From: Alphaproteobacteria bacterium
GTDB lineage: Bacteria > Pseudomonadota > Alphaproteobacteria > Rs-D84
Assembly (NCBI GenBank): GCA_017615655.1
Contig: JAFZZS010000007.1
Coordinates: forward strand, 59,463 to 123,462
Direction: 5' to 3'
Length of the DNA stretch: 64,000 nt
Each line of letters begins with the position of its first letter. The stretch's first letter is position 1. Position numbers and translations under genes: made by a program. Below the pieces are notes generated by a model that was given only the letters and a program-made list of their open reading frames with translations, had not been told where the DNA came from and made no database searches. Positions 11,803 to 62,110 of this stretch are shown here, piece by piece.

Positions 11803-12213
11803 ATGCAATTGGAAATTACTGAAATGCAGAACGGGACAATCTGTTTGGCAAATGCTATTGCGCGTATTGTTTATGCCGAAACTCTTGCGGTTTCTTTGCG
11901 GGTGATAGAAGCATTAACTTCCATGATTGCGAATGCAACACTAAATAACCGGCATGAAATAATAAAGATGTTATCAGATAAAAATATTTTCGAATCATTG
12001 AATACCGAATCATCGCGACATAAATATTTATCGGTGGATACATCAATACGTGGTTTCCAGGTTTGTGTACGTGTTGCAATTAGGATGTTGCATGGTAATT
12101 TAGATGATAGGTGTAATCACGCAACAAAGTTTCATCGGTCAGAATTATTACCCAGTTGGGCGATTGCATGTGGTTATGTCGCAGATATAGATGGAATATT
12201 GTTCTATGCATAA
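11803..12213 (+). CDS. hypothetical protein, possibly SleB-like cell-wall hydrolase (phage endolysin?)
   Basis: 136 aa; weak resemblance of TICLANAIARIVYAE to the Hydrolase_2 CLAxAIYxEA motif. First gene of the phage-like cluster. Confidence 0.3.
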   Translation: MQLEITEMQNGTICLANAIARIVYAETLAVSLRVIEALTSMIANATLNNRHEIIKMLSDKNIFESLNTESSRHKYLSVDTSIRGFQVCVRVAIRMLHGNLDDRCNHATKFHRSELLPSWAIACGYVADIDGILFYA

Positions 12214-12231
12214 ATTCAAAGGAATCGTCAT

Positions 12232-12420
12232 ATGGAACGTTTTATCCATGGTGGTTTTTTTGCGAATCGCAAAATACAGATAATGACATGTGTCGGAATA
12301 GTATCCGCGTTGTGTGCATATCTTGTTGGCGATTCGGATATATATGCCACCGCCCAGGCAATTATTGCGGTCTGTGGTGTTTATTGGTTGCATAAATCTA
12401 AAACTAGTAAAGGAAAATAA
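12232..12420 (+). CDS. small single-TM membrane protein (holin-like?)
   Basis: 62 aa; hydrophobic core VGIVSALCAYLVG...AIIAVCGVYWL; basic C-terminus. Confidence 0.3.
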   Translation: MERFIHGGFFANRKIQIMTCVGIVSALCAYLVGDSDIYATAQAIIAVCGVYWLHKSKTSKGK

Positions 12421-12421
12421 A

Positions 12422-13078
12422 ATGGAAAATATACCAGAAAAATTTTTAAACAAAGACGGCACACTAAACAGTGATGCATTGATGAAATCATATTCTGAAC
12501 TTGAAAAAAAGATTGGAACGATGATATCTGTTCCTGATGACGAATCAGATGAAGCAACGCAAAACCGCTTTCGTCGGGCGATTGGTGTTCCTGAAAGTGC
12601 TGATGATTATCCACATAATGAATTATTTGATAATGAAAATGTACGTCAAAAATTTCATGAAATTGGTTTAACAAGTTCACAAGTTGAAAAAATTTATGAT
12701 ATCGCCGAAGAATTTTTATCACCGATGTTTTCAAGAATTTTTTCTATTGAACAAGAATCAAATGCGATGCTAGAACTGAAAAAATTTTTTGGCTCAGATG
12801 AAAAAATGCGTGATGCATTTATTGCAATAAAATCTTTTGGCGAGAAATTTTTACCTGTAGACGCATTTAATGAATTATGCGCCAGCCCCCAGGGAATACA
12901 AGGCATTTACAAGATGATGCAATCAATGGAACCAAGTGTTGAAACTGCTACATCAACTATAGAAAATTTAACTGATTCTGATTTACGTCGTATGATGCGT
13001 GATCCAAAATATTGGCGCGATCACGATGAAGAATATGTGCGTAAAATTGAAAACGGATTTAAAAAATTATATTCCTAG
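12422..13078 (+). CDS. acidic phage scaffold-like protein (position-equivalent to T7 gp9)
   Basis: 219 aa, very acidic and helical; lies immediately upstream of the capsid gene; RBS aaaggaaaataaaATG. The ORF-track start at 12314 is probably upstream read-through. Confidence 0.4.
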   Translation: MENIPEKFLNKDGTLNSDALMKSYSELEKKIGTMISVPDDESDEATQNRFRRAIGVPESADDYPHNELFDNENVRQKFHEIGLTSSQVEKIYDIAEEFLSPMFSRIFSIEQESNAMLELKKFFGSDEKMRDAFIAIKSFGEKFLPVDAFNELCASPQGIQGIYKMMQSMEPSVETATSTIENLTDSDLRRMMRDPKYWRDHDEEYVRKIENGFKKLYS

Positions 13079-13196
13079 TGAATATTTTTGATAAAAAAAT
13101 TACTTTTCTTCTTTACTAATTTTTTTCTTTCGTATAAAATGAAATCAAGAACAAAAGAATTTGTTCTATCCAAAAAAAATACGAAAGGAGAGAAGA

Positions 13197-13490
13197 ATGG
13201 CATTCACATTCTTGAAAACCGCTGCAAAGAAGCCTGCAGCAAAGAAACCGGCAGCAAAGAAACCAGCTGCAAAGAAACCAGCTGCAAAAAAAGTTGCAGC
13301 AAAGAAACCAGCAGCAAAGAAACCAGCTGTAAAAAAAGTTGCAGCAAAAAAACCAGCAGCAAAGAAACCAGCTGTAAAAAAAGTTGCAGCAAAGAAACCA
13401 GCTGCAAAGAAAGTTGTTGCAAAAAAAGTTGCAGCAAAGAAACCAGCTGCTAAAAAAGCTTGCGCAAAAAAATGTGCAAAGAAAAAATAA
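13197..13490 (+). CDS. histone H1-like basic repeat protein (AAKKP pentapeptide repeats)
   Basis: MAFTFLKTAAKKPAAKKPAAKK...; 15-nt tandem repeats; SD aaaggagagaagaATG 7 nt upstream. The other two same-region ORFs (13088..13453, 13116..13505) are repeat-induced artefacts. Confidence 0.6.
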   Translation: MAFTFLKTAAKKPAAKKPAAKKPAAKKPAAKKVAAKKPAAKKPAVKKVAAKKPAAKKPAVKKVAAKKPAAKKVVAKKVAAKKPAAKKACAKKCAKKK

Positions 13491-13510
13491 TAATGTTATA
13501 GACATTATGA

Positions 13511-13586
13511 AATGCCCGTAAAATCGGGCATTTTTTTATATTAAAAATTTTCAGTCAGATATAAAAAGTCTGACTGAATCTTTTTA
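13511..13586 (+). terminator. two consecutive rho-independent terminators
   Basis: atgcccg-taaaat-cgggcat plus T7 (13511..13538); tcagtcaga-tataaaaa-gtctgactga plus T5 (13551..13586). Confidence 0.75.
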
Positions 13587-13715
13587 TGGATAATCCATTT
13601 TTTATGGACCCAATTCGATTTGTTTTCGGCGTCACATCGACATAACCGCTAATAAATTATTTGGCGGGCAAAATTTGTTTGCCTTGATTTAATCATTTTA
13701 ACAAAAGGAAAAATT

Positions 13716-14531
13716 ATGTCTGTTTCCATAGATCAGGTTTTTGTAAAACAATTTGAAGCAGATGTCCATTTGGCTTATCAGCAAATGGGAACAAAACTGC
13801 GTTCTACGATTCGCAGCAAATCTGGGGTCGTAGGCACTTCTACAACATTTCAAAAAATTGGCAAAGGAACTGCCAGCACGAAATCACGTCATGGTATTGT
13901 GCCAGTCATGAATCTTAATCATGCACCCGTAGAATGCACATTGCAGGATTATTACGCAGGTGATTGGGTTGACGCACTGGATGAATTGAAAATCAATATT
14001 GATGAACGTCGTGTTGTTGCATCTGCAGGCGCGTATGCATTGGGTCGCAAAACAGATGAATTAATCGTTGCGGCAATGAACAATGCAACCACATATGTTG
14101 GTGATTATTCCACAGGTCTTACCAAAACGTTAATTTTAACAGCACTGGAAAAATTAAATGAAAAAGATGTTCCAGATGATGGACGCAGATTCGGTGTTAT
14201 CGGTGTAAAGCAATGGAATGAATTGCTTGGTATAACCGAATTTTCATCCGCAGATTATGTTGGAAACGATTTGCCATTCATTAACGGATGCGAAACAAGA
14301 AAGTGGCTTGGTATTACATGGATTATGTATAACGATTTACCAATCTCTTCGGCGCATCGCGATTGCTTTATTTATCATGCTTCAAGTGTCGGGCATGCGT
14401 GTGGCCAAGAGGTTAAGACCGATATTACATGGCATGGTGAACGTGCAGCACACTTTATCAGCAATAGTATGTCGCAAGGGGCAGTATTAATAGACAGTGA
14501 TGGTATTGTGCGTGTTAAATGTGGCGAATAA
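13716..14531 (+). CDS. T7-like major capsid protein (gp10 homologue, shortened)
   Basis: VFVKQFEADVHLAYQQMGTKLRSTIRSKSGVVGTSTTFQKIGK parallels T7 gp10 LFLKVFGGEVLTAFARTSVTTSRHMVRSISSGKSAQFPVLGR. 271 aa. Confidence 0.7.
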   Translation: MSVSIDQVFVKQFEADVHLAYQQMGTKLRSTIRSKSGVVGTSTTFQKIGKGTASTKSRHGIVPVMNLNHAPVECTLQDYYAGDWVDALDELKINIDERRVVASAGAYALGRKTDELIVAAMNNATTYVGDYSTGLTKTLILTALEKLNEKDVPDDGRRFGVIGVKQWNELLGITEFSSADYVGNDLPFINGCETRKWLGITWIMYNDLPISSAHRDCFIYHASSVGHACGQEVKTDITWHGERAAHFISNSMSQGAVLIDSDGIVRVKCGE

Positions 14532-14548
14532 AACAAAGGGAGTAGGCA

Positions 14549-14779
14549 ATGGCTTTTCAGAATAAAAATTTGTCGGTAATTGCGTATGCAAATGGTTTTA
14601 CGTTGTGGCATTACGCTGCGAATGAAACAATGGCAACCATCACAGCAAGTGGTTATTTTAATATGGTCAAAACATTGATGAATACAGGTGATGTTGTGAT
14701 TATCAATGCATCTGATAAAACATCAATTAAAAAAATTGCTGTGGGTGATAGTGCTGTTACAACTGCCGCATTAGATTAA
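14549..14779 (+). CDS. small phage-cluster protein of unknown function
   Basis: 76 aa ORF between the capsid and gp11-like genes. Confidence 0.35.
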   Translation: MAFQNKNLSVIAYANGFTLWHYAANETMATITASGYFNMVKTLMNTGDVVIINASDKTSIKKIAVGDSAVTTAALD

Positions 14780-14788
14780 TTTTTTTGA

Positions 14789-14825
14789 ATCGGGCCGGAT
14801 TTCCGGCCCAAATTTAATTTTTATA
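14789..14825 (+). terminator. rho-independent terminator after the capsid gene block (position analogous to T7 Tphi)
   Basis: cgggccgga-tt-tccggccc then aaatttaattttt. Confidence 0.65.
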
Positions 14826-14839
14826 AATAAGGTAGAAAA

Positions 14840-15358
14840 ATGCTAACGAAAATAGATTTATGTTCAATGGCGTTGTTAAAACTTGGTGAAAATCCAATTC
14901 AATCATTGTCAGATGATACCGCAACCGCAAAGCTTGGGCGTACGTTGGTCGATTTTGTTATAGATAGTTTGCTTACGATGCATCCGTGGAAATTTGCATG
15001 CAGAACATATAACCTGAATGCGAATATAGACGGTAGTTTCAATATACCCACAGATGTATTGCGTATTGTTAAAACAAATGGTCGCGTAATGGAAGATAAA
15101 ATAATTTCAGATTCTAAAGAAATTAGTATTACCGCGATTGTGCGTATATCTCCGGACAAATTTCCAAACTATTTTTCATCGCTTGTTGTAACAAAACTAG
15201 CCACAGAATTTTGTATGCCTATTACAGGCGATCAAACCGTATTTAGAACACTGGTCGCACTTTATGAAACAGAGTTACAAAATGCAAAATTCATAGACAG
15301 CACAACGTCGATAAATCCACAAATAGAAAATTTTTCACTTGTAGATGTTCGTTTCTAG
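14840..15358 (+). CDS. tail tubular protein A (T7 gp11 homologue)
   Basis: CSMALLKLGENPIQSLSDDTATAKLGRTLVDFVIDSLLTMHPWKF aligns with T7 gp11 [42 protein letters not shown]. Confidence 0.65.
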   Translation: MLTKIDLCSMALLKLGENPIQSLSDDTATAKLGRTLVDFVIDSLLTMHPWKFACRTYNLNANIDGSFNIPTDVLRIVKTNGRVMEDKIISDSKEISITAIVRISPDKFPNYFSSLVVTKLATEFCMPITGDQTVFRTLVALYETELQNAKFIDSTTSINPQIENFSLVDVRF

Positions 15359-15373
15359 TGTACGGGGGAAATC

Positions 15374-17080
15374 ATGGGAAATTTTATAAAAACACAAACT
15401 TCATTTGCTAATGGCGAGATTTCGCCCAATTTTTTTGCGAATGATAATATGCATGGTCTTGCATATATGGAAAATATGGATGTTATCCCGGGTGGGGGAC
15501 TTACCAGGCGTGCCGGACTAAAATCATTAGCTACATTACCATCTAGTGCCAGACTGATTTCTTTTTCAGCGTCTGAAAATGATAATTATGTCCTAGCGAT
15601 TATGAATGGAATTATTCGCGTGTTTTCTAGTGGCGAATTTGTGCAAGATATTATAGCGCCATGGACATCAAATGATTTGATGAAATTGCAATATGCGCAA
15701 CGTTTTGGAACGATAATATTTGTTCATCCAGATTATAAACCGCGAATACTTTCTTGTGAATCCAGCTCATTTCAATTGCTAGAATTTACATTTACATATA
15801 CCGATGATTTAAACAACATAAATATGCCGTTTATGCGATTCGAAGACTCTGAAGGTATAACATTAACACTTACGCATACAAATGACGGAGTGCAACTTAC
15901 AACGAATCAAGATTTTTGGACTCAAGATAATGTTTATGGGCATTTATCATTGCTTGGTAAAACATTTCTGGTACAAAGTTATATAGATTCGCGGAATATA
16001 ATCGCAGTATGTAATGGAACATTTACATACCCAAATACGCCAGTGTCTGATTGGAAAGAGGCGGTATTTAGTTATCGTCGGGGTTGGCCAATAAGCATAA
16101 CATTTCATCAAAATAGATTGGTGTTTGGCGGATCCAAATCATGGCCTGGTGGTGTTTGGATGTCTTGTGTCGGACAGCATAGAAATTTTAATACGGGTAC
16201 AGGACTTGATGACGAGGCGATATTTTTCACCTTACTATCAGGACGCAGGCAACATATTTGCACATTGGTAAGCAGTGATAATTTACAGATTCTTACATCT
16301 GAAGGCGAATGGGCGGTGTCCAATAAACCGCTGACACCCGAATCAGTAAATATAAAAATGCATACATCTGTGGGCAGTCCCGCGGATATATATTTGCCCC
16401 CACAAGAAATGGAAGGCAAAACGATATTCGTTTCTAATAACAAACAGGATATTCGTGAACTGACGTTGGATGAATTGGGCGAAAATTATAATGCGAATAA
16501 TTTATGCGAGTTATCTGCTCATTTGATACAAAAACCAATTGATATTGCGTACAACAAAAAACAAAAGCGTTTATTTGTCGTTATGCAAGACGGTAACATG
16601 GCCGTGTTAAATCGTGATGTATCACTGGATATATCTGCGTGGGGCCGTTATACCACAAGTGGTAAATTCTGTTCGGTCGTTGTTTGTGAAGGTAATACAT
16701 TTGTTGTTACGAAACGTGATACAACTTTTTATCTTGAGCAATTTTCTGATTCCGAAATGATAGATGCAACGAATCAAAAATATACGGTACGTGCCGTAGG
16801 GTTACCACTGATGTCGGCAGGGCATAATGCACACAAAATTCAAATAAGGAAGATTATTGCAAGATTGTATAATTCCAAGACGTTGTTTATAAATGGTCTG
16901 CGCGCAAATTTGCCCAATAATGCATATTCCATAGATTCTGGGGGGTATTCAGGCGACATTTCTATGAATACCATTGGAACATGTTTACCAATTAGTGACG
17001 CACCATGGGAATTATCTACGACAGATGCAATGCCGTTAACAATATTGTCTATAACAATATATGGCAGATATCAAATTTAA
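15374..17080 (+). CDS. tail tubular protein B (T7 gp12 homologue)
   Basis: N-terminus FANGEISPNFFANDNMHGLAYMENMDVIPGGGLTRRAGL...IRVFSSG parallels T7 gp12 LKGGISQQPDILRYPDQGSRQVNGWSSETEGLQKRPPL...GIRVFDLSG. 568 aa. Confidence 0.65.
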   Translation: MGNFIKTQTSFANGEISPNFFANDNMHGLAYMENMDVIPGGGLTRRAGLKSLATLPSSARLISFSASENDNYVLAIMNGIIRVFSSGEFVQDIIAPWTSNDLMKLQYAQRFGTIIFVHPDYKPRILSCESSSFQLLEFTFTYTDDLNNINMPFMRFEDSEGITLTLTHTNDGVQLTTNQDFWTQDNVYGHLSLLGKTFLVQSYIDSRNIIAVCNGTFTYPNTPVSDWKEAVFSYRRGWPISITFHQNRLVFGGSKSWPGGVWMSCVGQHRNFNTGTGLDDEAIFFTLLSGRRQHICTLVSSDNLQILTSEGEWAVSNKPLTPESVNIKMHTSVGSPADIYLPPQEMEGKTIFVSNNKQDIRELTLDELGENYNANNLCELSAHLIQKPIDIAYNKKQKRLFVVMQDGNMAVLNRDVSLDISAWGRYTTSGKFCSVVVCEGNTFVVTKRDTTFYLEQFSDSEMIDATNQKYTVRAVGLPLMSAGHNAHKIQIRKIIARLYNSKTLFINGLRANLPNNAYSIDSGGYSGDISMNTIGTCLPISDAPWELSTTDAMPLTILSITIYGRYQI

Positions 17081-17097
17081 AATCAAAGGAGTAACAA

Positions 17098-17445
17098 ATG
17101 GGACAAATGATTTCAGATGTATCAGATATATTGAATTATCAAAGTAATAAAAAAAATGCTAATGCAACAAAAAAACAAATTTTGGCCGATATTGTAGCTG
17201 ATGAAAATCAGAAACAAAATCTTGTTAAAAAAGTGCTGGCAACGCAACGTGCAAAATACGGGGCATCAGGTATGAATAACAAGGGGCTTACCGAGGATGC
17301 AGTGTTAACAAGGTTAAAAAAAGAAACCGAACAACCATATGATTCGAAAAAAGAGGTCAATATTAGAAAGTTGAAAAATGCCAAGGTAAAAAAGAAAAAT
17401 TTATTGCTAACTGCATTGGCACATTTGGACAAATTGGTCGGATGA
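17098..17445 (+). CDS. putative small terminase subunit (position of T7 gp18)
   Basis: 115 aa, basic, directly upstream of terL; assignment by position only. Confidence 0.3.
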   Translation: MGQMISDVSDILNYQSNKKNANATKKQILADIVADENQKQNLVKKVLATQRAKYGASGMNNKGLTEDAVLTRLKKETEQPYDSKKEVNIRKLKNAKVKKKNLLLTALAHLDKLVG

Positions 17446-17449
17446 TAAT

Positions 17450-18043
17450 ATGAGTGTTTATAGCCAATTTTTAGATTCTTGGAACGAGGTAATCGGGTTT
17501 ACCGCTCCGGAACACCATTATCATATGACAGATTTTCTGGGAAATGTTATTAACGGAAATTCACGTCATGGATTACTAATGGCGTTTAGGCATTCTGGTA
17601 AATCAACGATTGTTGGAATTTTTGCGGCTTGTACTTTGTTTTTACGTCCGGAAACGCGAATATTAATATTGTCAGCAGAAACCCACCTTGCTACACGAAT
17701 GGTTATGCATATTCGTAATATATTGGAAAATCATCCATGGTGTACAGATTTGGTGCCAAAAAATAAACGCGAATGGGCGGAAAATAAAATAACGGTTAAT
17801 CGAGCCATAGGAATTCGTGAACCATCGGTTGTTTGTCAGGGAATATACGGCAATATAACAGGAATGCGTGCAGATTTAATAATATGCGATGATGTAGAGG
17901 TTCCAAACACCTGTAACACCGCGAGAAAGCGTACAGGACTGCGCGACAAATTGCGCGAACTTGATTTTATACTTTCACCAAACGGTGCGATGATTTACAT
18001 TGGAACCCCGCATACATTGGACACAATTTACAGAACAGACTAA
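17450..18043 (+). CDS. terminase large subunit, N-terminal ATPase fragment (gene interrupted)
   Basis: Walker A AFRHSGKST; Walker B ADLIICDDVE; motif III IYIGTPHT. The ORF stops after 197 aa, where the ATPase domain is incomplete. Confidence 0.8.
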   Translation: MSVYSQFLDSWNEVIGFTAPEHHYHMTDFLGNVINGNSRHGLLMAFRHSGKSTIVGIFAACTLFLRPETRILILSAETHLATRMVMHIRNILENHPWCTDLVPKNKREWAENKITVNRAIGIREPSVVCQGIYGNITGMRADLIICDDVEVPNTCNTARKRTGLRDKLRELDFILSPNGAMIYIGTPHTLDTIYRTD

Positions 18044-18702
18044 TTTTCTATAGAATTTGTCTGTTGGGGCAAGGAACTAATCAATGTGTGCAATTTCTGT
18101 AACAATTCGGATCCTTCTTCACCAAACATGGGTAAATATGTTTCATATTCTGGCAAATCTACCTGAAGTTGCGCACGCACACGATCATTTACAGGTTGCT
18201 TGATAAGGTCTTTGGCTTTTATCCATATATTATAAGCATTCCACATACGTGCAATTTGATCAAACTTGTCGAACATGTCAGTATCATTTGTCAGTATAGT
18301 TCGTATAGATGAAACCCAATCCGAACCAAAGCGACGAACAACGGGCGTAGATATGAAATTCTCTAGACCACGTTGATTCGGGGTAAAGGCGTTAATAGCA
18401 ACCTTTAATTCTTTTAGTTCCGGTTCTGTTATTTGAGTGTTTATTGGGCGTTCCGCAAATATACCACCATATGGTAATAATTCGCGAGATATAGAATCCA
18501 TAGGGGTCTTGCCACTGCGCAGGTTATTTATATGTTCAGATAATAATTTACCTGTCGGTAAATCTTTTAGTTCCTGGATTACGTCATCGGTGGCTTCGTC
18601 AATAAAAATTTTGTTTAACACGGACCAACCGCCTGCGATAACATGTGCTTGACGATAAAGGTTTAACAACTTCTGTGCGACAATGCTTGCTTTGGCTTTC
18701 AT
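18040..18702 (-). CDS. hypothetical protein (part of the insertion within terL)
   Basis: 220 aa; no motif recognised; stop codon overlaps the stop of the terL N-fragment convergently. Confidence 0.4.
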   Translation of the reverse strand: MKAKASIVAQKLLNLYRQAHVIAGGWSVLNKIFIDEATDDVIQELKDLPTGKLLSEHINNLRSGKTPMDSISRELLPYGGIFAERPINTQITEPELKELKVAINAFTPNQRGLENFISTPVVRRFGSDWVSSIRTILTNDTDMFDKFDQIARMWNAYNIWIKAKDLIKQPVNDRVRAQLQVDLPEYETYLPMFGEEGSELLQKLHTLISSLPQQTNSIEN

Positions 18703-18729
18703 CTCGTTTAATCCCCCATATTTAAAGAT

Positions 18730-19740
18730 TTATTCGGTCAAAACCATAATAACTTTGTGCATAGTTTTGGCGGTAATTTTCTCGTCAGGTGATATCATTT
18801 GACCATAAACTTTGCCCTTGGAGTCTTTACGAATCACTGCGATATTTGCACGAACAGTTTCTTCGGGTTTAAGTGCTTTGAAATCGGCGTCTATAAAGAC
18901 CGCCAAATCACCAACCGTGGCATTTATCTTCGCGTCTGCAAAAACATATGATTTTTCCGGAATAAAACCACCAAGACGCTTTGAATTTGGAATAACCGCA
19001 TAAACACCCTTGCGACCTTCAAGATTCGCAGGAGCATTTATCATTGTATTATCCGATTTTTTTAATGCGATATACTTGCCATCTGGATGACCAAATACGG
19101 GTACCAATTTACGACGTGCGGTTTCATATAATTTTGCACTGTAAAGGTGCCCTTGGGAATCACCGAAATCTGCGGACGAATCACCTGGAACCAAAATAGA
19201 TTTTACACGTTCTTTGACTTTGTTCATTTGTTTGATAAGTTCACCAGATTTGTAAAGTTGAGCAATTTTATCAAACATCGTCTCAACAGAACAAGCAAAC
19301 GAATTCGCAAGTGGTTCTATTTCATTTTGATATACTTCGCGCTGACCAACTTCAATTTTATGATAAACTGATAAGGTCATACCAGCATCTTTCGCCGCCT
19401 GAGCAATAGTCTTTCCGGATTGTTGGCGAATTTTACGTAACCCGCTACCAAATAATTTAAGACCACTGTCTTCGTTATCATTCATACGGCGTGTGATTTC
19501 GTCCTGCCATTTAGATGCAACTTCGTCTGTATCTTTGATAAAAATATCTGACAGCTTACAGCCCAAAATATTGCAGATATTCAACAACTGTTTTTGATTA
19601 AGGCGTCGGACACCTTTTTCAATCTTGGACACTGCAGACAAAGACAATCCTGAACGACGTGCCAGTTCAGTCATCTTCATACCTGCTGCAAGACGAATAT
19701 TGCGAATATTGTTTGGAAAAATGATTTCTTCCTGGGCCAT
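18730..19740 (-). CDS. CI-like transcriptional repressor with two XRE-family HTH domains and a degenerate S24-like C-terminal domain
   Basis: HTH1 NIRLAAGMKMTELARRSGLSLSAVSKIEKG; HTH2 LRKIRQQSGKTIAQAAKDAGMTLSVYHKIEVG; C-terminal beta-rich domain lacks a clear GDSM catalytic Ser-Lys dyad. Confidence 0.7.
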   Translation of the reverse strand: MAQEEIIFPNNIRNIRLAAGMKMTELARRSGLSLSAVSKIEKGVRRLNQKQLLNICNILGCKLSDIFIKDTDEVASKWQDEITRRMNDNEDSGLKLFGSGLRKIRQQSGKTIAQAAKDAGMTLSVYHKIEVGQREVYQNEIEPLANSFACSVETMFDKIAQLYKSGELIKQMNKVKERVKSILVPGDSSADFGDSQGHLYSAKLYETARRKLVPVFGHPDGKYIALKKSDNTMINAPANLEGRKGVYAVIPNSKRLGGFIPEKSYVFADAKINATVGDLAVFIDADFKALKPEETVRANIAVIRKDSKGKVYGQMISPDEKITAKTMHKVIMVLTE

Positions 19741-19762
19741 GTAAACCTCCTTGTATAAAATC

Positions 19763-19781
19763 TTGACAAAATGATAGTCAA
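19763..19781. promoter_or_regulatory. palindromic operator TTGACaaaatgataGTCAA overlapping the -35 of the repressor promoter
   Basis: On the minus strand: TTGACT-17-TTTATA-caAGGAGGtttacATG; the inverted repeat TTGAC-N9-GTCAA spans the -35 and spacer. Confidence 0.5.
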
Positions 19782-19817
19782 ATTTTGAAAACTTGGCAAG
19801 AAAATAATTATATAAAA

Positions 19818-21377
19818 TTACAAATCGATATCATCTGGTATTGCATTGATATCAATTTTGGGAACATCGGCGACCTGTTCAGGTGTATTTGATGCGAAAT
19901 CATCCGAGAACCCAGGAACATTGCTTTCCATTTCGTTAAGGTTATCAAACAAACTAAATTCTGCAAGGAAAGCAAGATGAACAGTATCTGTGCGCCCATG
20001 ACGGTTTTTCCCAATGATAAGGTCCGCTTTGCCTTTGGCTTTTTCTAGTCGAGCCTGCCAAGAACCCACAGATTTTTCGTTTGGCGTATTTGATAAGCGG
20101 TAAGATGGATCCCGGTTCTGCAAGTAATATTCCTCGCGATAGGTGAACATAACAATGTCAGCATCCTGTTCAATTGACCCGGAATCACGTAAATCGGATA
20201 ATTGTGGTCGTTTATCATCACGTGATTCGACACTGCGCGAAAGTTGTGAAAGTGCAATGACCGGAACATTTAATTCCTTGGCAAGCATCTTTAGACCGCG
20301 CGTTATTTCTGACAATTCTTGAACGCGGTTATCCTTGTTTTTGCCGCCTGGCGAAGTAATAAGTTGTAAATAGTCAATAACAATAAGCGAGATTCCATTA
20401 TATTTTCTGGCAAGCCTCCGTGCGCGAGTGCGTATCATCGGAACTGACATACCAGGTGTGTCATCAATGAACAAAGGAATACGACTTATTGCATCGGAAA
20501 ACTGGGTTAATTTTAGAAAATCTTCATCTGTCAAAGATTTACCTTCGCGCATTGCAGATGCCGGGATTCGTGATTGTGACGACAGCACGCGTGCAGCTAA
20601 TTCAGAGGCCCCCATTTCAAGACTGAAAAAGGCGACCGCACCTTTGAATTGCGGATTCGCACGTCCAGAGTAAATTGCGTTTGCCGCATTAAATGCGATA
20701 TTCATGGCCAATGCAGTTTTACCCATACCTGGACGACCAGCAATTATAAGCAAATTGGACTTATGCATTCCACTTATTGCACGATCCAAATCGGTTAACC
20801 CGGTTGTTAAACCAGATAAGTTGCCATCAGCCTTGTAAGCGATTTCTGTTTCAACAAGTGCTTCCTTTAGGGCATTTGCAATCGGAACGACGTCGCGACC
20901 AACATCCCCAGTAGTTGCCAAATTAAAAAGTTTTTGTTCGGCATTTTCAACCTGGGCAGACACTGGATTGTCCATATCTTCGACAAACGCATCATCCATG
21001 ATAGATTGCGCAAGATTTATAAGTTCACGACGCGTTGCATTTTCATGAACAATACGACCATATTGTTCAACATTTACTACGGTTGCACTGGCCCCAGCAA
21101 GTTGAGTCAAATAATCAACACCACCAACGGATTCCAGGGTACCTTGTTGATCCAAATAATTCTTTATAGTGATTATGTCAAATGGTACACCTGCCGCAAA
21201 CAACCGTACAGCAAGTTTATAAATTTCCTGGTGTGCAGGATGAGAAAAATCTTCGGGGCGCAGGAATTCGGTAACCTTTTCCAGTGCGCGATTGCTTATC
21301 AAAATCGCGGCCAATACGGCCTGTTCGGCCTCGATATTTGTTGGTAAAGTTTTGGGAGTAAAGTCCATGTCAAACAT
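19818..21377 (-). CDS. dnaB: replicative DNA helicase DnaB (full length, bacterial type) with short acidic C-terminal extension
   Basis: N-terminal domain LPTNIEAEQAVLAAILIS; Walker A IIAGRPGMGKTALAMN; Walker B LIVIDYLQL; arginine finger region; 519 aa. Confidence 0.92.
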   Translation of the reverse strand: MFDMDFTPKTLPTNIEAEQAVLAAILISNRALEKVTEFLRPEDFSHPAHQEIYKLAVRLFAAGVPFDIITIKNYLDQQGTLESVGGVDYLTQLAGASATVVNVEQYGRIVHENATRRELINLAQSIMDDAFVEDMDNPVSAQVENAEQKLFNLATTGDVGRDVVPIANALKEALVETEIAYKADGNLSGLTTGLTDLDRAISGMHKSNLLIIAGRPGMGKTALAMNIAFNAANAIYSGRANPQFKGAVAFFSLEMGASELAARVLSSQSRIPASAMREGKSLTDEDFLKLTQFSDAISRIPLFIDDTPGMSVPMIRTRARRLARKYNGISLIVIDYLQLITSPGGKNKDNRVQELSEITRGLKMLAKELNVPVIALSQLSRSVESRDDKRPQLSDLRDSGSIEQDADIVMFTYREEYYLQNRDPSYRLSNTPNEKSVGSWQARLEKAKGKADLIIGKNRHGRTDTVHLAFLAEFSLFDNLNEMESNVPGFSDDFASNTPEQVADVPKIDINAIPDDIDL

Positions 21378-22215
21378 AGTATATGAAAAAAATGTTTTTT
21401 CAACCCCTTTTTTATCGGGTTACGATGAACTAAGAATCCCAATCATTAATTCCGACGGAAGACCAGTATGGCCCGAAGTATTTCCAATTGAAAAGATTGA
21501 AAAAATTCGTAAAACCGTTGGAGAACGACATTTTTTGGCCCAAATGATGCTAGATTATGTTCCGTCAGATAAAATTAGACTTGATCCGGGGAGCATCAAG
21601 TTATATGACGATGATTTTGATATACATAATTCCAAATTAGGAGAAAATCAAATCACTGGTATGGCAATTTACTGGGATCCATCCAGTGGTCGCAAAAATT
21701 CTGACAACAGTGTGTGTGTTCTTATTTATCGTGATGACAAAAATATGCGTGTATTTGTGCACGATATACTTTATATGATTGTTCCCGAGACCGTTGAATA
21801 CCCATTGGCATATCAATGTAATCAGGCTTTGGAATTTGTGCGGCGTCATCATGGGCATAATATACATGTTGAAACAAATGGAATAGGTGGGGCTTTTCCA
21901 GAAATAATGCGAACCAATAATCCAAATTCGCAATACAAAGTTCAAATTTTGCCGATAAGTAACAGCCGGCGCAAAGAAGATCGGATTCTAGATACCATAG
22001 AGCCACTGTTAAGCACAGGGCGGCTTTATGCGCATCGCCGTATAACACAAACTCCACTAATAGCAGAAATGTTGGCATGGACCCCACTAGGCAGTGGGGA
22101 ACATGATGATGGTTTAGATGCATTAGCGGGGGCAATTAATGCGCATCCAAATGTGGTGCGCCCAATGGCATCGACATTTCAAAGATATGTTGCCAACACA
22201 AACTTTAAAATCTAA
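21367..22215 (+). CDS. terminase large subunit, C-terminal (lid plus RNaseH-like nuclease) fragment
   Basis: Nuclease motifs GMAIYWDPSSG and GEHDDGLDALAGAI. Start codon overlaps the dnaB start (21377) on the opposite strand. Confidence 0.78.
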   Translation: MSNIVYEKNVFSTPFLSGYDELRIPIINSDGRPVWPEVFPIEKIEKIRKTVGERHFLAQMMLDYVPSDKIRLDPGSIKLYDDDFDIHNSKLGENQITGMAIYWDPSSGRKNSDNSVCVLIYRDDKNMRVFVHDILYMIVPETVEYPLAYQCNQALEFVRRHHGHNIHVETNGIGGAFPEIMRTNNPNSQYKVQILPISNSRRKEDRILDTIEPLLSTGRLYAHRRITQTPLIAEMLAWTPLGSGEHDDGLDALAGAINAHPNVVRPMASTFQRYVANTNFKI

Positions 22216-22236
22216 CAAATAACAAAAGGAATAATT

Positions 22237-23463
22237 ATGAAATATGATTTACAAAAAATGTATACGCATGCATTGGCGGTTCGTGAACCATGGCTTAAAA
22301 GGTGGTACGATGCGCGCAAGTACACAATGCCGACATCAGATGAAGATATGGCAATGTTATTTGATGCGACCGCTGCGGATGCTGCAGATAACCTGGCAGC
22401 ATGTATGTATTCTTTGCTTACGCCCCCGGAATCATTGTGGTTGAATCTTGTTCCCGAAAGCCCAGAATCACCAAATGCAGAAGTTGCAACAGCTGTACTG
22501 CGTGCAAATCTTAACGATTCAAATTTTTATACAACAATTCATCAATGCTATATGGATTTGGTAACATTGGGAACGGCCTGTTTATTTATGGCAGAAAGTC
22601 CAATTGGTGCATCCAGTGCATTTTCATTTACTGCAATTCCAATGAAAGACATTGCGATTTTGCCGAATGCAGTTTTTCATACCACATCTATTTCGATTAG
22701 TGACGTGATGGCGCGTTATCCAGAATGGACACCTACACGTGAAATTGCCGACAAATTAAAACAAAATACCGATTTTTCGGTACGTTTAGTCCAGGCATTA
22801 ATAGGTTCTGATTTTACAGCGTGGTTGGATGTTGGTGGAAATCTTGAAAACAATATTGTATCGTGCGGAACGTTTGAAACAAATCCATACTTAATTTTCC
22901 GTTGGTCCGTAACCAGTGGTGAGCAATATGGTGTCGGACCAATTTTACGTGCATTACCTGATATAAAAACCGCAAATAAAGTTGTGGAACTGGTTTTGAA
23001 AAACGCAACTATTGCCGTCAGTGGTATATGGCAGGCAGACGATGATGGTGTCATAAATCTTGAAAATATTAATTTAACCCCCGGGGCAATAATTCCAAAA
23101 GCAGTAGGTAGCAGCGGTTTGACTCCACTTGCCACTGGGGCAAATTTTGATGTTTCACAAATTATACTAAAAGATCTACGCGAACGAATTCGTCATGCAT
23201 TACTTGCCGATAGATTGGGATTATTATCTGAAAAAGAAATGACGGCCACTGAAATATTGGCACGTAACGCGGACATGTTACGCATATTGGGTGCGACGTA
23301 TGGTCGATTATTGCACGAATTTATTCGTCCACTTTGTGACCGGGGACTGCAAATACTGTCACGTCGTGGTATCATAGATAAAATATCATTGCACAGTGAT
23401 GCGGAGTTAAAATACATTGCACCAATTGCCCAAATGGTTGCAGAAAACAACACAATTATATAA
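22237..23463 (+). CDS. head-to-tail connector (portal) protein, T7 gp8-like
   Basis: WLKRWYDARKYTMPTSDED parallels T7 gp8 YERLKNDRAPYETRAQNCAQYTIPSLFPKD. FRWSVTSGEQYGVGPILRALPDIKTANKVVELVLKNA parallels gp8 MVRLDGESYGRSYIEEYLGDLRSLENLQEAIVKMS. Confidence 0.7.
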   Translation: MKYDLQKMYTHALAVREPWLKRWYDARKYTMPTSDEDMAMLFDATAADAADNLAACMYSLLTPPESLWLNLVPESPESPNAEVATAVLRANLNDSNFYTTIHQCYMDLVTLGTACLFMAESPIGASSAFSFTAIPMKDIAILPNAVFHTTSISISDVMARYPEWTPTREIADKLKQNTDFSVRLVQALIGSDFTAWLDVGGNLENNIVSCGTFETNPYLIFRWSVTSGEQYGVGPILRALPDIKTANKVVELVLKNATIAVSGIWQADDDGVINLENINLTPGAIIPKAVGSSGLTPLATGANFDVSQIILKDLRERIRHALLADRLGLLSEKEMTATEILARNADMLRILGATYGRLLHEFIRPLCDRGLQILSRRGIIDKISLHSDAELKYIAPIAQMVAENNTII

Positions 23464-23476
23464 CAGGGAATTTATT

Positions 23477-23683
23477 ATGAGAAATTTAGAATTGTCATAC
23501 GCTAAGACATTTTCATCTGATTCTGGCGCAATTGTTATCGCACATTTGCGCCGAATAACAATTGAACGTGTGTTGGGACCAAATGCAACAGAATCAGAAT
23601 TACGTACACTTGAAGGCGCACGCGCATTGGTACATCAAATTGAACAGTTGATATTACGGGGGCGGCAAAATGCAAAAACATAA
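23477..23683 (+). CDS. hypothetical small protein (start uncertain)
   Basis: ORF 23417..23683; plausible start at MRNLELSYAK. Confidence 0.3.
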   Translation: MRNLELSYAKTFSSDSGAIVIAHLRRITIERVLGPNATESELRTLEGARALVHQIEQLILRGRQNAKT

Positions 23684-23927
23684 TGGTATCAGCGGAATAA
23701 TAGAAACATTACGCAACAGTTGGTTTTTAATTGCGTTTATTGCGGGACTTATATACTGGGTTGCGCGCCAGGATAATGCATTGATCGAACTTGATAGGTT
23801 AACTGTTCGAATGACTACATTAGAAAATCGTACTACGGTATTAGAAACAGGAATAGGGCAATTACAATTAAAAATCGATGCAATCAAAGAAGATTTGACT
23901 CTAATTAAAACTGCCGTGATTAAGTAA
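23670..23927 (+). CDS. small membrane protein with C-terminal coiled coil (holin/spanin-like?)
   Basis: TM segment WFLIAFIAGLIYWVA; heptad-like LTVRMTTLENRTTVLETGIGQLQLKIDAIKEDL. Confidence 0.35.
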   Translation: MQKHNGISGIIETLRNSWFLIAFIAGLIYWVARQDNALIELDRLTVRMTTLENRTTVLETGIGQLQLKIDAIKEDLTLIKTAVIK

Positions 23928-38380: not shown

Positions 38381-39334
38381 ATGAGAAGTAGGATATTTTG
38401 TTTTCTTGTTTGTATGGGTGTGTTGAATACTGGTGTTGCCATGGCAAATTGGCAGTATTCTGGTGAGTACACATACAGTATGTCCGCATACGACAATGGA
38501 CAACGTGCTTCAGTTGCGTTACGTGGGGGCATGTCTTACGCAATGGCCAAGGTTAATAACGATGTGGGCTCCATTGTGTATTCTTATTGCATAAATTCAA
38601 CAACTGGCGAGGTTTTTCCCATAGATGCTGCCGGTGATTGTTCGTCGTATGTCGGGGCAACATATGCAGGAACTGGCAATTTTGGTGATTTAGGTGCGTC
38701 GGATTTGTCTGGAATCGCGTTTTCAGGCGGTGCAAGCGTTGGGTGGATTTTGCCTGATACACCGCAATGGCGCCTTGAACTTGGGTGGGATCACTATTCC
38801 GAAGTCGATTATAATAAATCCCCATTGTTTTCTGGAAATATGGAACTGTCGGGCGGTGATACAATATCAGTAGAAAGCGGCAGTGTTCAATCGACAATAT
38901 CATCCGATATAATCAGTGTGATGGCGTATTATGATTTCTTTGATGGTTTGTATAAACCACTTAAGCAGATGATACCTTACATTGGTTTGGGTGTCGGCTA
39001 TGCAGACAGTGAAACTGTTATGAATGTTTCTGATCCATGGGGTGATTTATCACAGGTCGAAGATTTAACTAATTTTGGCACTGTGAACGATAATGGGGTG
39101 TTACAGTTTTATCGTTCAAAAACAAATACCACGAATGTCGCTGCGATTGGTGCACTTGGTTTCTCATATGGATTAAATGAAAATTTATTTCTAGATTTTG
39201 GTGCCCGTGTGGCATATATTCCGCGTGTGAAATATCGTTTAGTAAATGTTGACGATTCTCGACGTATGGATTGGTTCAGTGCTAAAAATTTAATCTACGC
39301 TAATGTTATGTTGGGCATTAGATTTGAATTTTAG
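38381..39334 (+). CDS. outer-membrane beta-barrel protein (paralogue of the 7334/8307 family)
   Basis: Signal peptide; YIGLGVGYA Gly strand; C-terminal MLGIRFEF. Confidence 0.6.
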   Translation: MRSRIFCFLVCMGVLNTGVAMANWQYSGEYTYSMSAYDNGQRASVALRGGMSYAMAKVNNDVGSIVYSYCINSTTGEVFPIDAAGDCSSYVGATYAGTGNFGDLGASDLSGIAFSGGASVGWILPDTPQWRLELGWDHYSEVDYNKSPLFSGNMELSGGDTISVESGSVQSTISSDIISVMAYYDFFDGLYKPLKQMIPYIGLGVGYADSETVMNVSDPWGDLSQVEDLTNFGTVNDNGVLQFYRSKTNTTNVAAIGALGFSYGLNENLFLDFGARVAYIPRVKYRLVNVDDSRRMDWFSAKNLIYANVMLGIRFEF

Positions 39335-60709: not shown

Positions 60710-62110
60710 ATGCCAAGTGTCAAGGTTCCTGAAGTTGATATTTTGACGGCTGATCACGATAGACATAATCTTGCATACATAGATAAAGTAGCCGCATCGG
60801 GTCGTATAAATGATGAAGCAGCAACTTATCTAAGGCGGTTGTATGCTGATGGCATGTCTTGTTATCGTGAGGTTTTTCATATTCTTGGCAAATGCTTTGG
60901 AGCCCCAAAAACAGCGGTTACTGAATATGATTCTGAAACAGATTTACCTGTAAATAAACCGATAAAAATTATTGATATTAACCCGCTGTCATCATATTTG
61001 GTAAACCATCGTTTGGATGCCGACCCAATGCGTAACCAATTCTTTACTTCGGGTGCCGCACACAAAATAGATTTATCGGTATCTTCTATTGTCACGGTCA
61101 TTGTTGGATCACAAAAAAATGTAGAACGTGCATTGGACAAGGTAACTGGAAAATATTATCGGTTTTTTACCGAAGATGTTATTTTGGCAGTTACGCGTGC
61201 AATGTCCGATATATATGATGAAAAATATATTGAAAAAATTATAAAAAAAATTCAGACGCGTTTCAGTGAGAAATACGTTACAGATGCGGCCGAAGAAGTT
61301 ATTTCTGTTTTGGGTCCAAGTGATGATAAACTGGTCGTTAAAATTGTTCGTGAATTAGACAAAGTAAAAAAGCCCCATCTTTATCTTAATGATGTATGGC
61401 GCGTAAAATGTCTGTTTGATTTGATTCCCCAGGCGCGCACGTTTATTGAACGTTTGCGTGATATTATGCCAGAACGTATAATTTCTGTGCGAGATAAATT
61501 TTATGATATTGGAAATCCGCGTAATTATCGTGATTCTAAGATAATTGTGAATATCGGTACACCAGATAGTGTAATACCAATGGAAATTATATGCCAGGTT
61601 CGAACATTCTTTGAATTTGAACGTAAAACACACGATTATTATGCGATGTTGCGGGAACGTCCAGATGCCAAAAATTTAAAGATAGAGCAAGATGCTGCCG
61701 AATTGATGGAAAATGGAATAATACAATATAATATGGTCATTTGTCGTTGTCTTGATGACTTATTTGATAGAATGGGTTGGAACATTTTATACAGTCGTGG
61801 TGGCGATGTATCTTTATTCGAAGGGTTTCCACGTGAATGCAAATTATACTATCCGCAACCTATGCTAGAAAAAATCTTTACTAAACTTGATGCCGCGGTA
61901 AAAAATGAGATATTTCACATAACGCATTCATCGTCAAAACTTGATATGACCCAGGAAATTGCGATATTTAGGTTTATGGCTCGGTTTATTCTTTGTGCGG
62001 CGATGCCGCGCGCGCGTGCTGGTAAAAATATTCCAGGTGATAGATTATCAGTACGATTGTTTAACTTTATTATGAATGAAGTATATCGGTATTATAATAC
62101 CAGTAAATGA
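60710..62110 (+). CDS. protein with RelA/SpoT-like nucleotidyltransferase (alarmone-synthetase-like) domain
   Basis: C-terminal half: VWRVKCLF...KFYDIGNPRNYRDSKIIVNIG...PMEIICQVRTFFEFERKTHDYYA. Compare the RSH synthetase order R-K ... DhhGhR ... GYxSLH ... hEhQIRT..M..WAE..H..YK. 466 aa; 14 nt downstream of lysS. Confidence 0.4.
   Translation: MPSVKVPEVDILTADHDRHNLAYIDKVAASGRINDEAATYLRRLYADGMSCYREVFHILGKCFGAPKTAVTEYDSETDLPVNKPIKIIDINPLSSYLVNHRLDADPMRNQFFTSGAAHKIDLSVSSIVTVIVGSQKNVERALDKVTGKYYRFFTEDVILAVTRAMSDIYDEKYIEKIIKKIQTRFSEKYVTDAAEEVISVLGPSDDKLVVKIVRELDKVKKPHLYLNDVWRVKCLFDLIPQARTFIERLRDIMPERIISVRDKFYDIGNPRNYRDSKIIVNIGTPDSVIPMEIICQVRTFFEFERKTHDYYAMLRERPDAKNLKIEQDAAELMENGIIQYNMVICRCLDDLFDRMGWNILYSRGGDVSLFEGFPRECKLYYPQPMLEKIFTKLDAAVKNEIFHITHSSSKLDMTQEIAIFRFMARFILCAAMPRARAGKNIPGDRLSVRLFNFIMNEVYRYYNTSK

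Follow-up and report, generated by a model that had tools for sequence, protein, structure and literature searches.

What does a gene for a lysine-rich, histone H1-like polycation do between the scaffold and the capsid gene of a phage-derived gene cluster? The question is raised by a 64-kb stretch of DNA (contig JAFZZS010000007.1; hereafter the window, meaning the whole stretch that was analysed), which is the chromosome of a Candidatus Enterousia-like (Rs-D84) gut alphaproteobacterium and not a phage. Mainly by its context and its conserved architecture, the lysine-rich gene is more than a stray low-complexity open reading frame (ORF). We consider the chances about even that its product is mainly a nucleoid-associated, DNA-condensing cellular protein which is expressed independently of the particle genes around it, and this is the role that we favour.

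A protein-coding gene in the AAKKP frame

The gene, its ribosome-binding site and the repeat beneath it are placed as follows.

13185-13192, + strand: Shine-Dalgarno sequence AAGGAGAG, 4-5 nt 5' of the ATG
13197-13490, + strand: coding sequence of a 97-aa polycation (294-nt ORF, ATG at 13197, TAA at 13488-13490)
13216-13472, + strand: tandem DNA repeat under the pentamers (Tandem Repeats Finder)

The encoded protein, MAFTFLKTAAKKPAAKK...CAKKCAKKK, is composed of a cap MAFTFLK, 18 pentamers of the type xAAKK and the tail CAKKCAKKK. It has a mass of 9.9 kDa, a pI of 11.07 and a net charge of about +38, with 38 Lys (39%), 33 Ala, 10 Pro, 8 Val and 2 Cys and without any Arg, Asp or Glu. A preliminary description of the locus had proposed an (A/V)AKKP-type polycation of about 97 aa with this tail, built on 15-nt tandem units, and both points hold: according to Tandem Repeats Finder, 15.5 copies of a 15-nt unit span 13216-13447, and a higher-order period of 45 nt recurs 5.7 times, with 88% matches, over 13216-13472. 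The same description took three forward frames and one reverse frame to be open, which has to be corrected. Stops interrupt the QRNQ frame at 13213, 13330 and 13375, the KETSCK frame ends at 13451, and two reverse frames are fully open at the gene. The antisense frames are open because GCN, AAR, CCN and GTN codons cannot give an antisense stop.

The choice of frame is settled by the orthologues. These were located by their position relative to the capsid gene, since a general protein search missed the Enterousia orthologues, whose exact sequences are also absent from its cluster table; low-complexity proteins are seemingly poorly indexed. Comparison loci carry L numbers, with flanks of 6-10 kb analysed on each side of the capsid gene; the cluster is found in L010-L089, L090-L139 and L289-L368, and L140-L169 come from IMG/VR. 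The AAKKP frame is open in 76 of 76 complete orthologues, whereas the other two forward frames contain a median of 4 and 5 stops. Nearly all of the 76 show (A)AAGGAGAG followed by 4-5 nt and ATG, and it is the AAKKP frame only for which a Shine-Dalgarno sequence and a start codon are conserved. Among 25 pairs of orthologues of equal length, differences at codon positions 1, 2 and 3 number 36, 74 and 473 (81% at the third), and single-base codon changes divide into 428 synonymous versus 39 non-synonymous ones; the pairs are not mutually independent, and the pattern is still unambiguous. The synonymous excess in this frame rules out a purely DNA-level role of the repeats. The lysine-rich gene is a real protein-coding gene, read in the AAKKP frame and under purifying selection, and the start site and frame favoured by the preliminary description stand.

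The proposal that the ORF is no gene in this frame, the repeats acting as DNA (iterons, a packaging site, a recombination hotspot) or the KETSCK or an antisense frame being translated instead, could appeal to the several frames that are open in the window, but it was dropped on the stops in the 76 orthologues, the substitution pattern and the forced openness of the antisense, and we regard it as close to refuted. All 33 Ala codons are GCA or GCT, compared to 57% in the long ORFs of the window, a bias compatible with high expression or with repeat homogenisation.

Conservation reaches beyond composition. Residues 2-7 of the 76 orthologues always include two or three hydrophobic or aromatic residues, e.g., in MAFTFLK, MFFGSKKK, MFGLKKK, MFCLKR and MSLFKK, and such residues make up 0.13% of the rest of the protein. 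Only 6 of the 7709 residues are acidic. At least one Cys is present in 72 of 76 orthologues and exactly two in 54 of 76; the cysteines are confined to the last 14 or the first 16 residues, arranged as CAKKC, CAKC, CAC or CGC, with two exceptions that have one extra internal Cys each. A three-part architecture of hydrophobic cap, pentamers and Cys pair is thus conserved. An AlphaFold2 prediction from the single sequence shows no globular fold (mean predicted local distance difference test score, pLDDT, 66; predicted template modelling score, pTM, 0.25): residues 1-67 are coil, and residues 68-96, among them the Cys pair, form a helix.

The eukaryotic linker histone H1 has a disordered C-terminal tail rich in K, A and P which binds DNA electrostatically and condenses it. 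The lysine-rich protein resembles this tail and has no winged-helix globular domain; the Pfam scan gave no match to Linker_histone at E<=0.01. Pfam HC2 (PF07382) is passed with 57.8 bits against a cut-off of 40, which reflects composition because the model itself is of low complexity. The curated NCBIfam models for Hc2 (NF038052; 39.9 against 135) and for Burkholderiales H1-like proteins (NF038053; 44.9 against 80) stay below their cut-offs. The 113 matches of a protein database search are compositional only, most of them K/A/P tails on SWIB domains and the rest on YegP-type, zinc-ribbon and transmembrane proteins; no Hc2 match of orthologue type is among them, and the one match of a PDB search was a weak one, to a K/A/P-rich stretch of a sigma factor. 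Similarity to the Hc2 and BpH1 proteins is therefore best read as convergent composition, and we do not file the protein in those families. Of the assignment to an "Hc1/Hc2 or BpH3 type" in the preliminary description, the H1-tail-like polycation remains and the family membership does not.

What the protein shares with Hc2 (HctB) is a build of consecutive pentamers of two basic residues and three Ala, Val, Thr or Pro, without acidic residues, higher-order repeat units, and a length that varies by repeat number (PMC2848022). Hc2 and BpH1 are both described as DNA-binding proteins of lysine-rich pentamers with variable length; BpH1, a chromosomal protein, is growth-regulated and dispensable (PMC2848022 and references therein). 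There are clear differences. Hc2 has 165-237 aa as compared to 97 aa, its higher-order unit is 36 aa long instead of 15 aa (45 nt), and the lysine-rich protein differs further in using Lys only, with no Arg. Hc2 further has a conserved N-terminus of 24 residues and a distinct C-terminal domain, where the lysine-rich protein has no more than 7 non-repeat residues at its N-terminus and about 9 at its C-terminus; conversely, the 7-aa hydrophobic cap and the terminal Cys pair are not reported for Hc2 or BpH1. BpH1 and the other Burkholderiales H1-like proteins, also made of lysine-rich pentamers and varying in size by repeat number, have 180-200 aa, and none is reported inside a phage-like structural cluster. 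Hc2 is chlamydial, while the protein described here is alphaproteobacterial and encoded in a phage-derived cluster.

Repeat number had been expected to be hypervariable. Between species the orthologues indeed range from 38 to 164 aa (median 101), with a median length difference of 10 aa at 90-95% capsid identity. Among close relatives the expectation fails: of six locus pairs with 97-99% capsid nucleotide identity, four are equal in length and two differ by 1 aa, and five assemblies of the organism of the window are identical over the repeat, so that the strain comparison suggested earlier yields no polymorphism apart from a change in an A run further upstream in one assembly (L002). Repeat lengths in metagenome-assembled genomes (MAGs) need caution and may be collapsed, because short-read contigs break inside the repeat. 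The change in L002 (9425-9775), from the same organism, is a 1-nt deletion together with an A-to-C exchange in the A8 run at 13172-13179, by which an upstream ATG (13139) is fused in frame to yield an N-terminally extended product of 116 aa. It could be an assembly error or homopolymer slippage.

Signals from the promoter to the capsid leader

The gene is flanked on both sides by conserved non-coding elements.

13112-13140, + strand: predicted sigma-70-type promoter from a consensus scan (-35 TTTACT, 17-nt spacer, -10 TATAAAAT)
13148-13167, + strand: inverted repeat AGAACAAA-N4-TTTGTTCT at the predicted 5' end of the mRNA (-6.7 kcal/mol)
13509-13534, + strand: T1, read as the intrinsic terminator of the lysine-rich gene (GAAATGCCCG...CGGGCATTTT and a T run; from a scan, -14.9 kcal/mol)
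13550-13578, + strand: hairpin H2 (TTCAGTCAGA...TCTGACTGAA and a T-rich run; -14.9 kcal/mol)
13587-13647, + strand: rest of a structured leader 5' of the capsid gene (TGGATAATCC...GGACCC helices at 13587-13611, GTC...GAC at 13631-13641, single-stranded ATAACC)

The -35 element CTTTACTA and the -10 element (T)ATAAAAT, with 17 nt between them, show little or no variation across 35 aligned orthologous regions, despite near-saturated synonymous sites. The element at 13112-13140 is a candidate for a functional promoter. In the same 35 regions the arms of the inverted repeat do not vary at all, and its loop does (N4-6). It occurs once in the window, where none would be expected by chance, and could be a stabilising 5' stem-loop of the RNA or an operator for a repressor at the DNA level; the two are not separable because the stems never vary. 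Altogether, the non-coding signals upstream of the gene are more conserved than most proteins of the region. The alphaproteobacterial SOS box is GTTC-N7-GTTC and the Cheo box GAAC-N4-GTTC. The arrangement GAAC-N10-GTTC, considered as one or the other, fits neither of these boxes. No CtrA-type TTAA-N7-TTAA was seen before the capsid gene.

Downstream of the gene, 76 of 76 loci have a GC-rich hairpin and T run no more than 110 nt from the stop codon, versus 2 of 76 shuffled controls. The sequence of T1 differs among lineages and the structure is retained. H2 behaves in another way. Its sequence, CAGTCAGA...TCTGACTG, is conserved; of its 11 pairs 7 are compensatory, with 99% of cells paired in 37 sequences. 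Its T run is poor in some lineages (L047, L053, L060, L074), so termination may not be its only role. H2 belongs to a conserved structured leader at 13546-13650 that continues with the GGAyAATCC...GGACCC helices, the GTC...GAC helix and ATAACC before the capsid Shine-Dalgarno sequence. In the downstream helices 9 of 9 pairs vary, 8 of them in a compensatory way (alignment A2). Taken as a whole, the structure has 98% of its cells paired and compensatory changes in 15 of its 20 pairs; none of 500 shuffles attains the score, which collapses in slid controls. For the hairpins and the leader, every Rfam family stays below its gathering score. H2 and the helices after it could form a structured leader, an attenuator or an antitermination element of the capsid gene. 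A double terminator, as first described, is therefore half of the picture: there are two terminator-like hairpins with T runs, of which T1 is taken for the terminator and H2 is a covarying part of the leader, probably more than a terminator. The promoter pattern, the inverted repeat and H2 occur once each in the window, and no operator or promoter motif shared with other places in the cluster or the window was found.

The segment 13112-13586 is predicted to be a self-contained transcription unit with promoter, 5' stem-loop, strong ribosome-binding site, ORF and intrinsic terminator.

Phage-derived setting and history of the gene

The neighbours of the gene and the composition of the cluster are listed here; TerL stands for the large terminase and HTH for helix-turn-helix.

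12422-13078, + strand: gene of the T7-type scaffolding (capsid assembly) protein, upstream neighbour (PF05396 E=1.4e-08, phrog_3742, gene call in L001)
13716-14531, + strand: gene of the major capsid protein (271 aa), downstream neighbour (PF19821 E=1.4e-72, phrog_3437)
11803-23927, mixed strands: whole phage-derived cluster (annotation, synteny, selection)
Cluster, first part, + strand: orf136, orf62, scaffold, lysine-rich gene, capsid, orf76, tail tubular A, tail tubular B, orf115, TerL N-part
Cluster, middle, - strand: orf220, double-HTH gene, dnaB
Cluster, last part, + strand: TerL C-part, portal, Bbp19-like gene, orf85

PF05396 upstream and PF19821 downstream bear out the placement between scaffold and capsid. 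The scaffold gene is syntenic in more than 70 genomes, and about 75 species-level genomes share the gene order of the cluster, including the position of lipB upstream of it and of dnaB within it. Compared with the window, median identities are 85% (capsid), 78.5% (portal), 74.5% (DnaB) and 66% (LipB). Synonymous sites of the cluster genes are near saturation (proportion of synonymous differences, pS, 0.53-0.73), while the non-synonymous proportion (pN) is 0.096 for the capsid, 0.15 for the portal, 0.19 for TerL-N and 0.17 for DnaB; the capsid is thus more conserved than DnaB. The ratio dN/dS of non-synonymous to synonymous substitution rates runs from 0.06 to 0.24 over all cluster genes at near-saturated dS, with about 0.06 for the capsid. 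The T7-type large terminase is split into a 197-aa N-part (17450-18043, +) and a 282-aa C-part (21367-22215, +), matching positions 3-190 and 217-500 of NCBIfam NF033889. The halves are 3.3 kb apart, with orf220, the double-HTH regulator and dnaB between them (18040-21314, -). Every syntenic genome has this split, and purifying selection acts on the N-part and the C-part alike (dN/dS 0.086 and 0.145). With the portal and both terminase parts so maintained, DNA packaging is probably retained.

Conservation of this degree inside sub-megabase genomes means that the cluster is functional and vertically inherited. The "virion structural module" of the preliminary description accordingly needs to be rephrased: its genes are phage-derived structural genes, and by annotation and synteny they form a domesticated podovirus-derived chromosomal cluster in genomes below about 1 Mb, which is neither a phage nor an ordinary prophage. 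Ordinary bacterial genes are found in the window as well (priA, bamA, rseP, murJ, lysS, lipB, lpxI, dnaB, three tRNAs), and neither PHROGs nor Pfam detects further phage-like genes such as core proteins or tail fibres elsewhere in the 64 kb. The capsid is 81-95% identical across Enterousia-like genomes, and its relatives at 82-95% identity sit on chromosomal contigs of up to 688 kb. Their carriers are rumen and gut MAGs labelled "Alphaproteobacteria bacterium" or "Candidatus Enterousia", and 469 GTDB species representatives encode such a relative. The window itself is identical to the metagenomic scaffold ENA ERZ28653428 (272 kb, bearing the capsid gene) over the compared region. Enterousia belongs to the uncultured order Rs-D84 and has genomes of about 0.75-1.0 Mb (PMC12306168).

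With its resemblance to a gene transfer agent (GTA), the cluster looks like a domestication of podovirus type that has apparently not been described. Like RcGTA-type elements and BaGTA, it is a set of structural genes of phage origin with a fixed place in the chromosome, vertical inheritance, purifying selection and synteny between species; the concept of such fixed genes is treated in PMC9662315 and PMC6821227. Known alphaproteobacterial GTAs are siphovirus-like (HK97-type), whereas the Enterousia cluster is T7/podovirus-like, with its PF05396 scaffold, tail tubular A and B and T7-type terminase, and particles and DNA transfer in Enterousia are hypothetical. In a literature screen by title and abstract, neither a podovirus-type GTA nor an H1-like protein together with phage capsids was found, and papers on Enterousia or Rs-D84 mention no phage cluster, capsid or histone-like protein.

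How did the lysine-rich gene enter this cluster? Of the 80 genome loci, 78-79 have a K/A/P/V-rich ORF at a distance of 210-270 nt upstream of the capsid start, the remaining two offering only 298 and 331 nt of upstream sequence. The gene is further present in the 14 IMG/VR loci with enough upstream sequence, with two more partial copies, and in 70 of 70 metagenome loci (capsid 75-93% identical to that of the window) from termite gut, activated sludge, human, ruminant and other gut or rumen studies. This amounts to about 165 loci, at capsid identities of 75-95%, in which the gene lies between scaffold and capsid, with one exception: L138 (capsid 75%, same lipB-orf136-scaffold context) has an ORF for a 188-aa multi-transmembrane protein (2121-2687) without PHROG match in this slot, which thus seems to accept different cargo.

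In free phages of the same capsid family the gene is absent. The scaffold directly abuts the capsid in Pelagibacter phage EXVC031P and Vibrio phage 237E40-1; no K-rich ORF is present in these two and in a faecal phage contig with 62.6% capsid identity (L007-L009), nor in 30 viral contigs from IMG/VR at 59-64% (L140-L169). The latter, which are phages or another domesticated lineage, have either the standard order portal-scaffold-capsid-tubular A/B or the rearranged order capsid...tubular B-portal-scaffold (L156, L157, L159, L161). Absence from free phages, near-universality in the domesticated cluster and the exchange in L138 together indicate that the lysine-rich gene is an ancient, replaceable moron-like insertion, which presumably arrived with domestication or soon after it. 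Morons are known from lambdoid phage genomics as autonomous promoter-gene-terminator units between conserved phage genes. The likeness lies in a single ORF flanked by its own predicted promoter and terminator, and in an insertion between genes that are adjacent in related phages, which do without it. The difference is that the Enterousia element is part of a fixed chromosomal cluster and that the insertion is ancient and near-universal rather than sporadic.

A (KKPAA)2KK stretch turns up in at least 120 viral contigs, nearly always as the tail of a larger protein. An unrelated viral contig (L216, 3211-3531, -), the sole standalone viral example examined, encodes a 106-aa K/A/P polycation, MTTATKPAAKKPAAK..., beside two ParB-methyltransferase genes and near a primase, i.e., in a DNA-metabolism module and not among head genes.

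Some further observations concern the cluster and the window. A strong GC hairpin (GGGCCGG-ATTT-CCGGCCC) without a clear T run follows directly on capsid and orf76 at 14792-14809 and precedes the tail tubular genes, a placement reminiscent of the T-phi terminator behind T7 gene 10. Many IMG/VR "provirus" records (L093, L099-L104, L109-L113 and others) start exactly at the capsid start codon, with the consequence that the lysine-rich gene, the scaffold and orf136 are cut off and a fixed chromosomal cluster is presented as a virus. Outside the cluster, a 1472-aa ORF (33885-38303, +) has no Pfam or PHROG match, and ORFs of 317 aa (38381-39334) and 466 aa (60710-62110) are likewise unannotatable.

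Possible roles of the lysine-rich protein

We infer the expression pattern and the cellular role of the protein from this gene arrangement. Independent expression, and hence the nucleoid role, is suggested by an invariant promoter that belongs to the gene alone and by terminator hairpins that insulate the gene from the capsid gene; the precedent of BpH1 and Hc2 also favours this role. The most likely activity is electrostatic DNA binding and compaction. As a disordered polycation, the protein would bind the DNA backbone independently of sequence, like the tail of H1, Hc2 and BpH1; with its charge neutralised, the DNA would be compacted or bridged. The terminal cysteines could link molecules via metal or disulfide bridges, as in protamines. 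The gene has the build of a moron-like unit between scaffold and capsid, in a cluster that is by now stable in the chromosomes of Candidatus Enterousia and its relatives.

Several points weigh against the nucleoid role. The slot between scaffold and capsid is the usual place of phage head-associated genes, although with the whole region syntenic, position alone says little either way. Conservation over the whole depth of the cluster (75-95% capsid identity) also fits a particle role, and the hydrophobic cap (76 of 76) and the terminal Cys (72 of 76) are left unexplained by a plain nucleoid coat. What points to DNA binding is the composition of the protein. The replacement in L138 implies that the gene is dispensable for whatever keeps the cluster. 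Finally, the 64-kb window holds no second K-rich gene and no HU or IHF, with one K-rich ORF per locus, a result that is uninformative for the rest of the genome.

The strongest competitor, which we consider rather doubtful, is a component of the particle. The polycation would be loaded into the phage-derived capsids, or act during packaging, and condense the DNA there, with the cap as a tag for capsid or scaffold and the Cys pair locking the condensate: the "protamine" of a virus-like particle. Its near-constant position and an age that equals that of the cluster family, down to 75% capsid identity, are what this role would predict, and the three-part architecture exceeds a simple low-complexity tail. 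The purifying selection on portal and terminase suggests that DNA is probably still packaged, and no T7-type internal core proteins were recognised in cluster or window. Precedents of co-packaged basic proteins exist in the T4 internal proteins, adenovirus protein VII and the protamines, the last of which cross-link through cysteines. As is generally known, T4 IPI-III, adenovirus VII and mu, baculovirus P6.9 and the protamines are all small and very basic and neutralise DNA in a confined space. The lysine-rich protein shows no sequence relationship to any of them, and its packaging is hypothetical. The T4 internal proteins, moreover, need a cleaved targeting peptide and a prohead protease, whereas neither such a protease nor other known cargo-loading machinery was seen in the Enterousia cluster, and the cap has no similarity to known targeting peptides. 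A separate promoter, a terminator and a further hairpin before the capsid gene would be atypical for a stoichiometric head component. Free phages of the capsid family manage without the gene, and L138 keeps the cluster without it. We know of no tailed phage or GTA that packages an H1-like protein, and of no GTA that carries an H1-like gene. In its fullest form, which we hold to be unlikely, the protein would be a bacterial "protamine" of an undescribed podovirus-derived, GTA-like Rs-D84 particle, recruited to the capsid via its cap, condensing host DNA, cross-linked by its cysteines and not needed by the free viral relatives.

A local regulator or silencer appears improbable. Here the protein, perhaps together with the leader and the inverted repeat, would coat AT-rich DNA or RNA of the cluster and silence the particle genes or time capsid expression, in the manner of a xenogeneic silencer or an RNA chaperone. 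The gene lies immediately 5' of the covariation-supported capsid leader, the invariant inverted repeat at its own transcription start suggests tight control, and the double-HTH regulator gene is conserved inside the cluster. A repeat with 39% lysine, however, has no obvious route to sequence specificity, and no repeated operator motif was found elsewhere in cluster or window. The proposal is pure inference.

It is very improbable that the target is no nucleic acid at all and that the protein acts on polyphosphate, on the membrane or envelope, or on another cell like an antimicrobial peptide: a hydrophobic cap before a cationic region, the predicted cationic C-terminal helix (68-96) and the K/A/P tails found on many unrelated domains would suit such a target, but there is no signal peptide, no lipobox and no hydrophobic segment longer than about 6 residues, and lysine pairs at the regular spacing of the pentamers are described for the DNA-binding Hc2 and BpH1 (PMC2848022).

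From a biological point of view, the lysine-rich gene may link the chemistry of DNA compaction with a domesticated virus-like particle. H1-like pentamer proteins are already known from bacteria as chromosomal DNA condensers, in Chlamydia and the Burkholderiales; new in comparison are the three-part architecture, the unusually conserved expression signals and the fixed place in a phage-derived cluster. This cluster is kept in genomes of about 0.75-1 Mb that shed most of their metabolism, and its capsid evolves more slowly than dnaB. With a particle role, if true, a histone-like packaging protein would for the first time be known from a domesticated tailed-virus system, while a nucleoid role, if true, would provide a clean example of a moron turned into a core chromatin gene. 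With either role, the cluster marks an apparently undescribed domestication of podovirus type and offers testable targets in the promoter, the structured leader and the split terminase.

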